A DNA stretch of 64,000 nucleotides from Candidatus Bathyarchaeia archaeon (GTDB lineage Archaea; Thermoproteota; Bathyarchaeia; 40CM-2-53-6): the NCBI GenBank assembly GCA_049513715.1, contig JBEKVV010000001.1, forward strand, positions 768,001-832,000, in the 5' to 3' direction. Of this stretch, positions 19,774 to 29,175 are shown in pieces (position 1 is the first letter of the stretch; the number at the start of each line of letters is the position of its first letter). The notes under the pieces were generated by a model. It was not told the DNA's origin and ran no database searches. It was given only the letters and a program-made list of their open reading frames with translations. The position numbers were made by a program, and so were the translations under genes.

Positions 19774-20787
19774 TCAGCTACCCGAAAGCCGCACGCCTCT
19801 ATCATCGAGTCGACTCGCGAAAACCCTTGCCGACGGAAATGCCGAGTGAACAGCCCGCATTACGCGAGGAACCCTGGAGTTTTCAGCAACTGCATGAACA
19901 GCCTTTCCGATCATGTTCTGCCCCACCCCCACGACTCCTGCAGACTCCATGATCCTCACAAGTTGCGCAATTTCCGGTGTTTGAAATCCTGCGTTCTCAG
20001 CGAATCTTCGCACTTCGCTGAGAAATGTCCTCAGGTCCGGTTTGCTGCGAATAGATTTCATAGCATGTCGGGCAGGAGGGTTTACTCTCGCAGCCAAGTC
20101 AGATTGCGAGAGAGCTTCGCGAGTAGGAATCGATCCCAGATACACGCATACGATTGAATGGTTCTTTGGAAAGATCAGTCGGTCAACCAGACCTATGCCA
20201 GGCGGGCCGGGCTCGGTAACTAGAACGAAGCCTCCAATGAGGACAGGGTATGCGGTTCCCAAACCCGTATGGTTTAGGACCTCAGCGACGTGCGTCAGTT
20301 CGCCGATCTCGTTTATTGAAATCGGAAGCTGAGCGGCATCGGCAAGAGCGAGGCATGAAGCAGCTGTTCCTCCAGCACTTGTGCCATATCCAGCCCCGAT
20401 TGGAACCTTCACTTTCAGGTTGACTCGAACATCTTGTGTCGAACCGACTCTTTCGAGCAAATGCTCGAGTGCCCATCTTGTTGTGTGGGCTTCTGGTGCA
20501 GGTCTTCCGTTTATTCGGATTGCGATGGTTGTCTTTGATGCTTTGTTGGCTGTGATGGTTGCGGAGATTCCAAGTTTGAGGGCGAAGCCGCCACCCCTGG
20601 CGCCAATTCGGATGGGATCTGTGATGGGTTTGCCTTCGGCATCGGTTGTGCAGATTTCGAAGAAACTGGATATGGCGGCAGGGGATACTGCTTCCGAAGA
20701 GGGCAAAGTTCTCTTCCTAGGACTTGGCGCGGCTGGAACTCTGATGATACTGCAGACTCGGAAACGCTGCTTTGCACGCCGCCACAA
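19774..20787 (-). CDS. pantoate kinase (GHMP family)
   Basis: SPAAISSFF, PIGAGYGTS, AEV...TGLG, GQNMIG; real start probably near 20700. Confidence 0.85.
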   Translation of the reverse strand: MWRRAKQRFRVCSIIRVPAAPSPRKRTLPSSEAVSPAAISSFFEICTTDAEGKPITDPIRIGARGGGFALKLGISATITANKASKTTIAIRINGRPAPEAHTTRWALEHLLERVGSTQDVRVNLKVKVPIGAGYGTSAGGTAASCLALADAAQLPISINEIGELTHVAEVLNHTGLGTAYPVLIGGFVLVTEPGPPGIGLVDRLIFPKNHSIVCVYLGSIPTREALSQSDLAARVNPPARHAMKSIRSKPDLRTFLSEVRRFAENAGFQTPEIAQLVRIMESAGVVGVGQNMIGKAVHAVAENSRVPRVMRAVHSAFPSARVFASRLDDRGVRLSGS

Positions 20788-21493
20788 CGGGCGGCGTTAG
20801 CAGAATCAAGAATGGGATCTCGGAAAGGTACGTGAAGGCTGTAGTTGCGTACATGAAGGCCGTTGGCAGCGCACCATTGCCGAGCCCTAGCACGCCTGGC
20901 AGTGTGAAGATTGTGCTGTAACCTACAATCCCAAGGCCAATGATGATGCTTCCAACGCCGAGCCCGATTGAGGAGGCAACCTCAAAGTCAGCCCACCGAT
21001 TTCGTTTCACCGTGAACCCGAGTATCACGATTACGGCCAGCAGACCTACAAAGGAGACGAGAAATTGCGGGCTTCCGAAGCCCCCGGTTCCAGACAGTAA
21101 GTATACGCCGTAGGCAGTTAGGACAATTGGAATGAGAAGACTCAATCCCAACAGGACACGTTTCACTGCTGCGGACGGGTTTCTGTGCGTCAACCAGCCG
21201 ATTAGAAAGAACCCGACGAAATTCGAAGGAACACCTACTAGGAGACTTAGGAGTGGATCATGATGGCCGTAGAAAACGTCGGCAATGAATATTCCAATTG
21301 CGGCTCCGACTCCTCCGGTCCATGGCCCGAAGAGGACGCTAAAGGCTGCGGGGACGAACACTTGAGGCCAGAACCGAACCCCAAAGACCGTCACGGGGAA
21401 AACGGTCCATAGAAGCCCAATGAGCGCATAGAGTGCGGCGTTTACGACTGTAGTTGCCAACCGCAACGACGCGGGGAGAGTTTTGGTTGCCAA
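20717..21493 (-). CDS. ECF transporter S-component-like membrane protein
   Basis: NAALYA, VRFWP, LFGPWTGGVGAAIGIFIAD pattern; multiple TM helices. Confidence 0.7.
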   Translation of the reverse strand: MATKTLPASLRLATTVVNAALYALIGLLWTVFPVTVFGVRFWPQVFVPAAFSVLFGPWTGGVGAAIGIFIADVFYGHHDPLLSLLVGVPSNFVGFFLIGWLTHRNPSAAVKRVLLGLSLLIPIVLTAYGVYLLSGTGGFGSPQFLVSFVGLLAVIVILGFTVKRNRWADFEVASSIGLGVGSIIIGLGIVGYSTIFTLPGVLGLGNGALPTAFMYATTAFTYLSEIPFLILLTPPVVAACKAAFPSLQYHQSSSRAKS

Positions 21494-21790
21494 GATGATT
21501 CCCCCCGGAGATATTTCGTTTGACTATTCTAAGCTTGCCCTGAGGATTTGTATGCGAGGGTCGCCTACTACGAGCCATCTTTGAGAGTGCTTTGCGTGCT
21601 CTCTAGAATTCAGGCAACGCTTCATTTGCAGGCAGCATCAAAGCCGACGAAAAGTAACAGCCCAACAGAACAGACGAAGAGGGACAATTATCATGTTATC
21701 CAGATTGGGGGTTGGAGTCGCGGCAATTCCAGCGCGTCGTGGCCTCAACGAAACGTTAAGATACGGTGGTTAGTGGGCATTAGCGCTTGT

Positions 21791-21953
21791 AGCCCGGTGG
21801 TGTAGTGGTCAAACCAGCAAATGGGACTATGCATAGCAATGGCGCCAGAATAGAACTGCCACTAAACGGCTCTGGATCCCCTCCACCAAAAGGAGAAACC
21901 TGCCGACGGGAGAACAACCAAAAACCCGAATTCGAATCTCCCCCGGGCTACCA
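21791..21953 (+). tRNA. tRNA-Gln(CTG) with four introns
   Basis: Removing 21813-21830, 21839-21867, 21876-21897 and 21913-21930 gives a 76-nt cloverleaf: AGCCCGG/CCGGGCT acceptor with ACCA, GCAGG/CCTGC anticodon stem, CTG anticodon, GGGAG-TTCGAAT-CTCCC T arm. Confidence 0.9.
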
Positions 21954-22152: not shown

Positions 22153-23691
22153 TCATTCCAGGGAACCAATAGCTTTCTCCACTTCCACAAGGATTTCGCA
22201 TGACTTCACGAGTTCCTTCATCTTGTTGTGATCGGGATGAAGCGGGCGGTCGATGTCGAGATACTTGACGTGTTTACGGATCACATTATGAGCAACTTGT
22301 GTTCCCTTTCCGAATTCGTATGGTGTTTCATATTTTTTACGTAAGTCAAGGGCTTGGGCAGCGGCCATGAATTCAATTCCCAAAATGCCATAAGCATTGT
22401 CGAGTATCTGGAAATTCTTCAGGGCGGTGTTCATGCCCATGGAAACGAAATCTTCCTGGTCGGCAGCAGCCGGGATCGACTGCATGGAGGCCGGCATGCA
22501 AAGGATTCGCTGTTCTACGATCTGCATATCAGCGGTATATTGGCTTAACATTAGCCCGGAGAACATGCCGGCGCCCTTAATCAGGAAGGGCGGAAGCCCC
22601 ACGCTGAGTGCCGGGTTATTCAGGCGGTTCATGCGGCGTTCAGAAAGTACGCTTACCATTGTTACTGCAACACCTATCATATCCATAGGCAAGGCAATGG
22701 GCGAGCCCTGGAAATTGGCGCCTGAGAGTACCAAGTTTTCATCCGGGAAGAAAAGAGGATTATCCCCCACACCATTGAGTTCGATCTCTACCTGTACTCT
22801 GGCAAAGCCAAGCGCATCATGTGCTGCACCAATCACCTGCGGTGTGGAACGCATTGAATATGCATCCTGCACTTTCACTTTTAGACGGCCTTCAGATAGG
22901 TCACCGCCAGCTGCTACCGTGCGGATTGATTTTGCACTGCGGACGCCACCGGGGAAACCGCGTACTTCAAGAATTAATCCATGATACGGTTTGAGGTTGG
23001 CTTTCAGCGCCTCCAGCGACATGGCACAGGCTATTTCAGCCTGCTTAAGCCAGTTGTTGGTGTCATATATCATCAGCGCCGACATGGCGGTAAGTACATT
23101 GGAACCATTGATAACGGCCAGACCATCGCGTACCTCCAGTCCGGGAATGGAGATACCTGCGCGTTCCATGGCCACATGGCCGTCCAGAAATTCACTCTTG
23201 TAATAGGCATGCCCTTCACCCATCATAAGCAAAGCAATCTGCGACATGGGTGCTAAATCACCGCAAGCACCCACCGACCCTTTGGTGCATACATAGGGCG
23301 TAACACCCTTGTTCAACATATCCACTAAAGTTTGGGTAATCGCCAGGCGGCAACCGGAATTCCCGTGTGCATGAACGTTGATACGCGCCAGCATCGCACC
23401 ACGTACCCAGTCAATGGGCATGGGATCGCCTATGCCTGCAGCATGATTGTAAATCAAATACCTCTGAAAATCCTTTACCTGATCATCGTTGAGCACTATC
23501 TCCGAAAATTCGCCTATACCAGTATTGACACCGTACATGATCTCATGGGCTTCAACTTTTTTCTCAAGCATCGCGCGGCACGAATTGATCCTTTTAATGG
23601 AATCGGGATGCAGTTCCACTTTTTCGTCATGACGTGCAACGCGTACAACGTCTTCAATGGTCAATCCTGAACCACTGATCACCAGTGTCAT
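22153..23691 (-). CDS. MIO-dependent aromatic amino acid ammonia-lyase (histidine ammonia-lyase family)
   Basis: YGVNTGIG, GSVGACGDLAP, QDAYSMR, DNP, GANF, DQEDFVSMG. Confidence 0.92.
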   Translation of the reverse strand: MTLVISGSGLTIEDVVRVARHDEKVELHPDSIKRINSCRAMLEKKVEAHEIMYGVNTGIGEFSEIVLNDDQVKDFQRYLIYNHAAGIGDPMPIDWVRGAMLARINVHAHGNSGCRLAITQTLVDMLNKGVTPYVCTKGSVGACGDLAPMSQIALLMMGEGHAYYKSEFLDGHVAMERAGISIPGLEVRDGLAVINGSNVLTAMSALMIYDTNNWLKQAEIACAMSLEALKANLKPYHGLILEVRGFPGGVRSAKSIRTVAAGGDLSEGRLKVKVQDAYSMRSTPQVIGAAHDALGFARVQVEIELNGVGDNPLFFPDENLVLSGANFQGSPIALPMDMIGVAVTMVSVLSERRMNRLNNPALSVGLPPFLIKGAGMFSGLMLSQYTADMQIVEQRILCMPASMQSIPAAADQEDFVSMGMNTALKNFQILDNAYGILGIEFMAAAQALDLRKKYETPYEFGKGTQVAHNVIRKHVKYLDIDRPLHPDHNKMKELVKSCEILVEVEKAIGSLE

Positions 23692-23829
23692 ACTATCTCT
23701 CCTTATTTTCAATACATCTTAATTTGTTATGAATGTTCCCAAATTTCAAAGGGATACCATCATCCCGGTCTAGCGGTGCACGCACACACACAAGAAAATA
23801 ATCGGAGCGTTGTAGAGTCTGTCTTGTCA

Positions 23830-27516: not shown

Positions 27517-29175
27517 ATGTCCGGACAAGGAATGCAAGTCATGATTCTGAGAGAAGGTTCTCAACGAACAACTGGAAAGGATGCGCAGCGAAACAACATA
27601 CTCGCGGCGAAAGTTATCACTGAAACCATAAAGACCACGCTCGGCCCGCAAGGGATGGACAAAATGCTGGTCTCTGGTATGGGTGACGTAGTCATAACAA
27701 ACGACGGAGCTACCATAATGAAAGAGCTGGATGTTCAACATCCCGCCGCTAAGATGCTTGTTGAGGTAGCAAAGAGCCAAGATAGTGAAGTGGGCGATGG
27801 TACGACCACCGTCGTTGTTCTCGCCGGCGAACTCTTGACGAGGGCGGAGAAGCTTCTTGACCAAGATGTTCACCCGACCGTCATCGTTGAAGGTTACAAG
27901 AAGGCTTCCGACAAAGCTTTGGAGATCCTCCAAAACCTATCAATCGGCATACAACCTGACGACGAAAAGATGCTCAAACTCGTCGCAATGACCTCGATGG
28001 GCACAAAGGCAACTGCTGGAACGAGCGAACACCTCGGAACACTAGCCACGAAAGCCATCCGTCAAGTCATGGAAGAGAGAGATGGCAAGATTACCGCTGA
28101 CATAGACCGAATCAAGGTCTTGAAGAAAAAGGGCGAAAGCATGGAGCAAAGCGAGCTCATCAAGGGCATCGTTGTCGACAAGGAAATCGCACACTCCCAA
28201 ATGCCAAAACAAGTAAAAAACGCAAAAATCGCCCTACTCAACGCGAAACTCGAGATTGAGAAGACCGAATTCGATGCGAAAATTAACATCAATTCACCAG
28301 ACCAAATGAAAGGTTTCCTTGACGAAGAAGAATCAATGCTCCGCGAAATGACGGAAAAGGTAGCGAAGAGCGGGGCCAACGTGATCTTCTGCGAGAAGAG
28401 CATTGACGACCTCGCACTGCACTTCCTCTCCAAGAAGAACATAATGGCTGTCAAAAACGTCAGCAGCGGAGACATGGAAAAACTAGCCAAAGCCACAGGC
28501 GGAACCATACAAGCCAGCACAAAGGACATACCCACCGAAGGACTCGGTGAAGCAAAACTCGTCGAAGAAGTCAAGATCGGAGACGACAAACTCGTCTACG
28601 TTCGCGACTGCAAAGACCCTCACGCCGTCACCGTGATGATCCGGGGCGGTTCCGAACATGTTGTGGACGAAGCCGAACGCTCTTTCCACGACGGTCTCTG
28701 CGTAGTCAGAAACGCCGTCGAGGATGGCAAGATTGTTGCTGGTGGAGGAGCCCCCGAAGCTGAAACAGCAAAGCAACTTCGCGACTACGCTCTAAAAGTA
28801 GGAGGACGCGAACAACTCGCGATCGAAGCCTACGCCGAAGCACTGGAAGCCATCCCCCTCACAATAGCTGAAAACAGCGGACTCGACCCAATCGACATAA
28901 TGGTTGAACTTAGATCAAAACATGCAAACCCAGAAAACAAATGGTTTGGCGTCCAAGTCAAAACCGGCAAGATCGCTGACATGCTCGCGAATAACATAAT
29001 CGAACCACTAAGGGTAAAACAGCAAGCCGTCAAATCCGCCACAGAAGCCGCCTGCATGCTACTACGAATAGATGACATCCTATCCTCAAAAGGCACGAAG
29101 GAAGGAGGTCCTCCAGGAGGCCCCGGCGGGATGCCGGGAGGCATGCCTGGCGGAATGCCCCCAGGCATGATGTAA
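27517..29175 (+). CDS. ths: thermosome (group II chaperonin) subunit
   Basis: [30 protein letters not shown]-terminal GGMP repeats. Confidence 0.97.

Follow-up and report, generated by a model that had tools for sequence, protein, structure and literature searches.

In this work we analysed a stretch of 64,000 nucleotides of a Bathyarchaeia genome (hereafter the window), and its sequence confirms that positions 21791-21953 (G000:C1:789791-789953) are a real tRNA-Gln(CUG) gene with four introns of the bulge-helix-bulge (BHB) type. The gene is 163 nt long and is composed of five exons (22, 8, 8, 15 and 23 nt) separated by introns of 18, 29, 22 and 18 nt, which lie at 21/22, 29/30, 37/38 and 53/54 in tRNA numbering. 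The features of the locus are as follows:

21749..21763, plus strand: putative BRE and TATA-like promoter, a block kept about 30-40 nt upstream of the gene in 17/17 genus-g1 orthologs
21791..21812, plus strand: exon 1, tRNA positions 1-21 (in-silico splice and scanner parse)
21813..21830, plus strand: intron 1, 18 nt, in the D-loop at 21/22, HBh' motif (scanner parse and ortholog alignment)
21831..21838, plus strand: exon 2, 8 nt, positions 22-29 (in-silico splice)
21839..21867, plus strand: intron 2, 29 nt, in the anticodon stem at 29/30, relaxed BHB (3/4 central pairs, helices on both sides)
21844..21849, plus strand: intron-2 loop hexamer, identical in 40/40 family-f1 loci
21868..21875, plus strand: exon 3, 8 nt, positions 30-37, with the anticodon CTG at 21872-21874 (in-silico splice)
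21876..21897, plus strand: intron 3, 22 nt, at the canonical position 37/38, hBH motif (scanner parse, folding and ortholog alignment)
21898..21912, plus strand: exon 4, positions 38-53 (in-silico splice)
21913..21930, plus strand: intron 4, 18 nt, in the T-arm at 53/54, hBH motif with 4/4 Watson-Crick central pairs (scanner parse)
21931..21953, plus strand: exon 5, positions 54-76, including the encoded CCA (in-silico splice)

The gene is surrounded by a gene for a membrane protein with a weak match to the substrate subunit of ECF transporters (20717-21493, minus strand), a histidine ammonia-lyase-like gene just below the family cut-off (22153-23712, minus strand) and a gene for a thermosome subunit (27517-29175, plus strand); we saw no link between these three neighbours and the tRNA gene.

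When the exons are joined in silico they form 76 nt that ARAGORN recognizes as tRNA-Gln(ctg); the acceptor, D, anticodon and T stems are all complete and the CCA is encoded. A canonical cloverleaf with the conserved bases and the matching identity is obtained in this way, as expected of a tRNA gene interrupted by EndA-processed BHB introns, and all five exons lie in order within the 163 nt, which is not the arrangement of a split or permuted tRNA gene. The introns account for 87 of the 163 nt (53%). The initial annotation had described four inserts of these lengths at these positions, an exact 76-nt cloverleaf after cutting, and introns that occupy more than half of the gene; it was accurate on each point, coordinates included, and a scanner blind to the coordinates agrees with it.

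As that annotation had anticipated, standard finders miss the gene: on the raw window ARAGORN reports 0 genes and Rfam 0 matches. Run with its intron option on the whole genome, ARAGORN missed tRNA-Gln(CUG) and mis-called many other genes, including a false Gln(ctg) at C1:468231, and these calls were excluded from the counts. Detection relied on a custom spliced-tRNA scanner, which fits a tRNA model, allows BHB-scored introns anywhere and was supplied with no coordinates. Its top parse in the window consists of exactly these four introns (score 62.9; next parse 57.3), accepted real tRNA genes score 43-65, and no match with a score of at least 30 was obtained on 900 kb of order-3 Markov-resampled sequence. 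Because the scanner itself uses the BHB motif, the spliced tRNA was also aligned to homologs under a scheme that leaves long gaps unpenalized and uses no motif term to detect introns; this motif-free alignment recovers the same junctions. In addition, homologs that lack single introns join at identical exon ends: L007 and others have neither the 21/22 nor the 53/54 intron, intron 1 is absent with the same junction in orthologs of genera g2-g4 and family f8, and intron 2 likewise in those of families f2, f6 and f9. Across 29 exon-anchored orthologs the exons are near-invariant and the introns variable, save at motif positions.

A BHB-like context had been claimed for each of the four sites. This is correct in the sense that every exon-intron boundary lies in a relaxed motif, cut after the second bulge base, but not one of the four is a full hBHBh' with four central pairs. 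Motif 1 (21/22) has 4/4 central pairs, one of them G-U, with a 3-bp intron helix and no exon helix; motif 2 (29/30) is the relaxed one; motif 3 (37/38) has 4/4 central pairs, again with one G-U, a single base pair in the intron-side helix, and an exon helix that attains 5 bp only once intron 2 is gone; motif 4 (53/54) has a 3-bp exon helix. Since none of them is complete, a lenient endonuclease is needed, as far as the available part of the review PMC4090602 goes. In six of the 17 genus orthologs (L023, L025, L045, L050, L051 and L056), intron 2 has just 2/4 central pairs, flanked by purine-purine oppositions, and would be scored as non-BHB by motif-based tools.

The gene was recovered in 17 of the 23 genomes surveyed in genus g1, with four introns in 17/17. 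Fourteen of these orthologs have the 21/29/37/53 layout, one of them (L054) with an altered last junction, and in the remaining three a 59/60 intron replaces the one at 53/54. L023 and L050 show three introns in the motif-free alignment, where exon 2 is merged into a gap, and four in exon-anchored parses; the apparent five introns of L054 are a pattern artefact of its altered junction and were counted as four. In L054 (G012:C34) a clean cut leaves the T-loop unrestored, as in a broken copy or an assembly error.

A separate Gln(CTG) gene, which the initial annotation had named as a possible objection, was looked for in the 99%-complete genome by a 5' motif search and a genome scan, and none was found: the motif has two exact matches, the tRNA-Gln(CTG) locus itself and the Gln(TTG) gene, and the scan yields one CTG gene among 45 tRNA genes. 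Upstream of the gene, the flanks of the BRE/TATA block vary among the 17 genus orthologs while the block itself is conserved, and established archaeal promoter anatomy suggests that this block is the promoter of the tRNA gene (a sigma-70 scan was discounted as inapplicable to an archaeon). One could argue that the tRNA is silent or decaying, or that chance or faulty assembly produced the four-intron parse, in keeping with the blank results of ARAGORN and Rfam and with a bin contamination of 8.8%. Nevertheless, no other gene for this tRNA was found, the layout and the promoter are conserved in all 17 recovered genus orthologs, and the null scan gave 0 matches. These comparative data all but exclude such a reading, which we consider highly improbable.

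The machinery required for splicing, an endonuclease and a ligase, is encoded in the genome, which carries two EndA-family (PF01974) genes and a gene for the ligase RtcB. The candidate EndA alpha subunit (186 aa) has its best solved relative (E 2.5e-41) among crenarchaeal catalytic subunits; its K39/K41 align to the specificity-loop residues K44/R46, and its His131 aligns to a position that is Ala in the near-identical solved chain. We take Tyr123/His131/Lys162 of this protein to be the catalytic triad, and the top solved chain is presumably the Aeropyrum enzyme, judging from numbering and length. The second EndA-like gene (192 aa) lacks the His, and its matches to beta-subunit models are weak, below the cut-offs. 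With separate catalytic and structural genes and a loop containing the conserved Lys, the pair would form, at the gene level, an (alpha-beta)2 EndA of broad specificity, the type of enzyme that the initial annotation had called for. According to the available part of PMC3241643, it is K44 of the crenarchaea-specific loop that confers broad specificity.

We propose that the gene's own BRE/TATA promoter would drive a single precursor transcript of tRNA-Gln(CUG), in which each relaxed BHB motif would be cut by the heterotetrameric (alpha-beta)2 EndA, with RtcB joining the exons into the 76-nt tRNA. The precursor would refold between splicing steps, the T-arm intron (intron 4) would be removed independently, and intron 2 would leave before intron 3, removal of intron 1 probably easing that of intron 2. 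The anatomy of the gene, its conservation, its single copy and the enzyme genes are observed; from them we infer transcription, splicing and its order, and we are highly confident that this is a functional, single-copy Gln(CUG) gene spliced stepwise by EndA and RtcB.

The proposed order comes from the overlap of two motifs and from folding. Exon 3 is part of both motif 2 and motif 3, which are mutually exclusive; because introns 2 and 3 share this exon, the four motifs cannot form simultaneously, which implies that the precursor would refold between steps. In the full precursor, constrained folding at 37 C, in a model without pseudoknots or proteins, puts the cost of making motifs 1-4 accessible at 4.2, 6.0, 7.9 and 1.0 kcal/mol, respectively. 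The cost of motif 2 becomes 3.1 kcal/mol without intron 1 and rises to 8.2 kcal/mol if intron 3 is removed first, while that of motif 3 goes from 7.9 to 2.4 kcal/mol without intron 2; folding also indicates that an internal hairpin of intron 3 competes with its own central helix. Among 14 orthologs of the same layout, removal of intron 2 eases motif 3 by more than 1 kcal/mol in 13 and the reverse help is seen in one, and removal of intron 1 eases intron 2 in just seven. The folding model thus predicts that intron 2 leaves before intron 3, in line with the ordered splicing that the initial annotation had considered possible. Motif 2 as modelled is weak, since it has 2/4 central pairs in 6/17 genus orthologs and since exposing it costs 6-12 kcal/mol across orthologs in the nested-fold model. 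In genus g2, motif 3 is favoured already with intron 2 present (P ~0.84 in most), and therefore the 2-before-3 order is not general in the family. In the Gln(TTG) genes of L022, L033 and L060, the fourth central pair of a 24/25 intron needs the upstream 20a/20b intron to be still present, which implies the opposite, downstream-first order.

Intron 2 has a second property. The hexamer at 21844-21849 is present in 40/40 loci of family f1, from five genera (26 of these loci were chosen by exon-1 pattern and 14 by whole-gene similarity, a criterion that may favour the hexamer). When the 29 distinct versions of the intron are compared, entropy is 0 bits at all six positions of the hexamer and ~1.5-1.7 bits at the six that follow; its distance from the start of the intron ranges from 6 to 22 nt, and the loop around it is otherwise variable. 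The Gln codon CAG lies within its last five bases, which are reverse-complementary to U33-G37. The helix between the hexamer and the anticodon loop is present in the minimum-energy fold of the window precursor, and its probability is 0.86 in the intermediate without intron 3 of the window gene and 0.76-1.0 in 14/15 g1 loci folded.

The reading that we favour over a cause other than cis pairing, and that we put forward tentatively, as one whose chances we place well below even, is that the hexamer pairs with U33-G37 in cis and hides the anticodon loop of the precursor, either blocking the cutting of intron 3 until the 8-nt exon 3 is joined, or forming an intron-anticodon duplex for anticodon modification. 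The invariance of the hexamer in a loop that otherwise varies, the presence of the helix in the minimum-energy fold and its dominance in the g1 intermediate without intron 3 all point in this direction, and guides do occur in introns of this lineage, for example the C/D-like boxes in the Trp 37/38 intron. Against it, the hexamer is absent from 10/10 orthologs outside f1 that have a 29/30 intron (families f5, f7, f8 and f10), and therefore splicing at this site does not need it. Its first G is invariant yet faces A38 or the first intron base and has no Watson-Crick partner, in-silico replacement of five bases shifts the costs by just 1-2 kcal/mol, and the nested pairing probability is ~0 in g2-g4, where a pseudoknot would be needed. 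Covariation cannot be seen, because the target is the invariant anticodon. Elsewhere in the genome, anticodon-stem introns are not enriched in complementarity to their anticodon (sum 49 versus a null of 50.1), so that anti-anticodon elements as a general feature of this genome were rejected. Finally, no C/D or H/ACA boxes are visible around the hexamer and Rfam has 0 matches in the window; an intronic guide of either class would have such boxes and a guide of about 10 nt or more, and here five bases are complementary and the following ones are variable.

The hexamer might instead be kept for a cause other than pairing in cis, as a protein site, by pairing with another RNA after excision, or as a DNA site of a mobile element that spreads introns, which we regard as a real possibility if still short of an even one. 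Such a cause would fit with an invariant unit of six bases, one beyond the pairing with the anticodon, with the varying placement of the hexamer relative to the stem, and with the extra tRNA 3' ends, typical of integrated elements, that are common in these genomes. It would however leave the five-base match to the gene's own anticodon loop as a coincidence, when one in 20 comparable introns of the genome reaches five, and no partner was found. Three other proposals were set aside. The conserved start of intron 3 is not kept to pair with intron 2, as families that lack intron 2 conserve it to the same degree; compensation of the weak motif 2 by the hexamer is unsupported, as the central helix is just as weak in f5, which has no hexamer; and no register of an alternative BHB built from the hexamer helix yields the correct cut sites (checked by eye).

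Outside genus g1, the Gln(CTG) gene has two introns in genera g2-g4 of the same family (16/16), three to four in g5, and three or four at varying positions in other families, and Gln(TTG) has 0 to 4. Over the order, Gln genes thus carry 0 to 4 introns at six positions at least, with swaps such as 53/54 for 59/60 and 10/11 for 21/22. A set of at least 120 named loci, of which 115 were parsed and 81 of these were intronless, overlaps with the ortholog set, and the two were not summed. It contains three four-intron Gln(CTG) genes (L092, L149 and L186), all titled Candidatus Bathyarchaeota or Bathyarchaeia, and, among the matches listed, 40 of the 115 parsed loci are intronless Gln(CTG) homologs with the same layout. 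A five-intron parse of L150 was dropped as a mis-parse.

The tRNA census of the genome gives 45 genes with 108 introns, a mean of 2.4, and 44/45 genes are interrupted: one gene has no intron, seven have one, 19 two, ten three, seven four and one five. These numbers include 44 scanner parses, four of which were corrected by hand (Trp, Arg-CCT, Val-GAC and Thr-TGT), and the Asp gene, added by hand; three low-scoring matches (score 37-38, seven introns, ~410 nt) were dropped as artefacts. Introns have accumulated in tRNA genes throughout the lineage, and the tRNA-Gln(CUG) gene is one instance of this. The view of the initial annotation that four introns are exceptional is not supported, given the 17/17 genus orthologs, the seven four-intron genes and the five-intron tRNA-Trp of this genome, and the genes with up to five introns in Asgard archaea. 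The survey of related genomes, set beforehand as the test that could refute its novelty, found a four-intron Gln gene to be routine, being present in every ortholog recovered in the genus; the gene is ordinary for its lineage, and genes with more introns have been reported.

The five introns of tRNA-Trp(CCA) (locus L206, G000:C1:372218-372443, minus strand) are located at 10/11, 28/29, 37/38, 45/46 and 59/60, and the 37/38 intron, of 59 nt, carries the C/D-like guide elements. Parsing C1:372218 as a 'Lys(TTT)' gene with six introns was discarded in favour of Trp(CCA) with five, which scores 54.1 versus 54.6, supplies the anticodon that would otherwise be missing and comes out best in the relatives. 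Of 30 loci fetched by the Trp 3' end, 22 were parsed and 20 have five introns (own locus included); in two families of the order a 17/18 intron replaces the one at 10/11.

Several other observations were made on tRNA genes. Two tRNA-Arg(TCT) parses have C at the nearly universal U33 (G000:C3:44654-44785, minus strand, and C4:128581-128724, plus strand), and in a likely tRNA-Arg(CCT) a run of C is one base short of a 7-nt loop, which may reflect C33 with a homopolymer error, or a deletion. The tRNA-Asp(GTC) gene (G000:C4:144551-144656, plus strand) has an apparent 30-nt intron in the 3' acceptor strand (68/69). No tRNA-His(GUG) was found in the whole genome by two genome searches; an interruption in its acceptor stem or its absence from the assembly may account for this. 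Among the Gln(TTG) genes, the D-stem intron (23/24 or 24/25) of genera g2-g4 (L009, L010, L012, L013, L015, L036, L037 and L039) fits no standard BHB, and a four-pair helix forms there only with a 5-nt bulge (by eye); in L059 (G001:C36) the 37/38 site holds 170 nt that may be a long or nested intron; and the 37/38 intron of L060 (G020:C32) resembles the Gln(CTG) type, which suggests that an intron moved between isoacceptor genes. Contigs C1-C5 of G000 carry many orphan tRNA 3' ends, as is typical of mobile-element integration sites (for example at C2:50933, C2:54893, C3:153916, C3:166057 and C4:150564), and Trp 3' ends are duplicated in several relatives.

Because ARAGORN and Rfam miss the tRNA-Gln(CUG) gene outright, the tRNA sets of these Bathyarchaeia are under-annotated, and the lineage-wide intron burden is apparently unreported. 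The best-ranked literature matches, most subscription journals being outside the scope of the search, include no study of tRNAs with several introns in Bathyarchaeia, and no description of a sequence complementary to the anticodon within an intron of this kind. The word 'Bathyarchaeia' occurs 0 times in the available main text of a 2024 Asgard paper (PMC11291895), 'Bathyarchae' 0 times in that of an October 2026 bioRxiv preprint (10.64898/2026.10.13.758758), and PMC7714728, in its available part, names the Bathyarchaeia group in a footnote only.

Ordered removal has a precedent in Cyanidioschyzon merolae, where the D-arm, 37/38 and T-loop introns of three-intron tRNAs are removed sequentially, 37/38 last (PMC3728597, available part). 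There the enzyme is eukaryotic, the introns number at most three and the order was seen by RT-PCR, whereas in Bathyarchaeia the order is a prediction. Two 8-nt exons between overlapping motifs make the present gene a compact and inexpensive substrate on which to study stepwise cutting and joining by EndA and RtcB, and whether one intron may steer the removal of its neighbour. For the hexamer, the closest known case is the box C/D guide located inside the intron of archaeal pre-tRNA-Trp (PMC4090602, available part), with which intron 2 shares a conserved sequence complementary to the anticodon arm of its own tRNA. Unlike this guide, the element in intron 2 has five complementary bases and no visible C or D boxes, and it therefore lies outside the box C/D guide class.

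Multi-intron tRNA genes are known from Pyrobaculum and Thermofilum (Sugahara et al., 2008, as cited in the available parts of PMC4033280 and PMC4090602). The genes of Thermoproteales resemble the one described here in having short introns of the BHB type, at the canonical position and elsewhere, together with relaxed motifs and an (alpha-beta)2 EndA with the crenarchaeal specificity loop. They belong to a different archaeal class, with 1.54 introns for each tRNA gene in P. calidifontis (10.64898/2026.10.13.758758, available part) and a maximum of three per gene according to the 2014 review (PMC4033280, available part), versus four in the Gln gene described here, five in tRNA-Trp and a mean of 2.4. 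The three-intron maximum on which the initial annotation relied is indeed what this review states, but it is exceeded both here and in Asgard archaea. In three complete Asgard genomes, introns interrupt 92-95% of the tRNA genes (PMC11291895, available part), and Asgard families have a mean of 2.2 introns and up to five per gene (10.64898/2026.10.13.758758, available part). On the basis of these partial texts the two situations are much alike: 92-97% of genes interrupted, a mean of 2.2, a maximum of five and many genes missed by standard software in Asgard archaea versus 44/45, 2.4 (a mean obtained by a different method) and five in our genome. A reading that joins a gained role of intron 2, whose codon-bearing loop would pair with the anticodon loop and gate splicing order or anticodon modification, to a further, unreported lineage of near-total tRNA fragmentation, with up to five introns per gene and equal to the Asgard extreme, is as a whole doubtful. 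How archaeal tRNA introns arrive is a question left unanswered in the available part of the Asgard preprint (10.64898/2026.10.13.758758), and the 0-4 introns found across the Gln genes of the order provide a dense natural series to address it. Asgard archaea and Bathyarchaeia are separate lineages, and the accumulation in Bathyarchaeia looks like a further one, independent from that of Asgard archaea.
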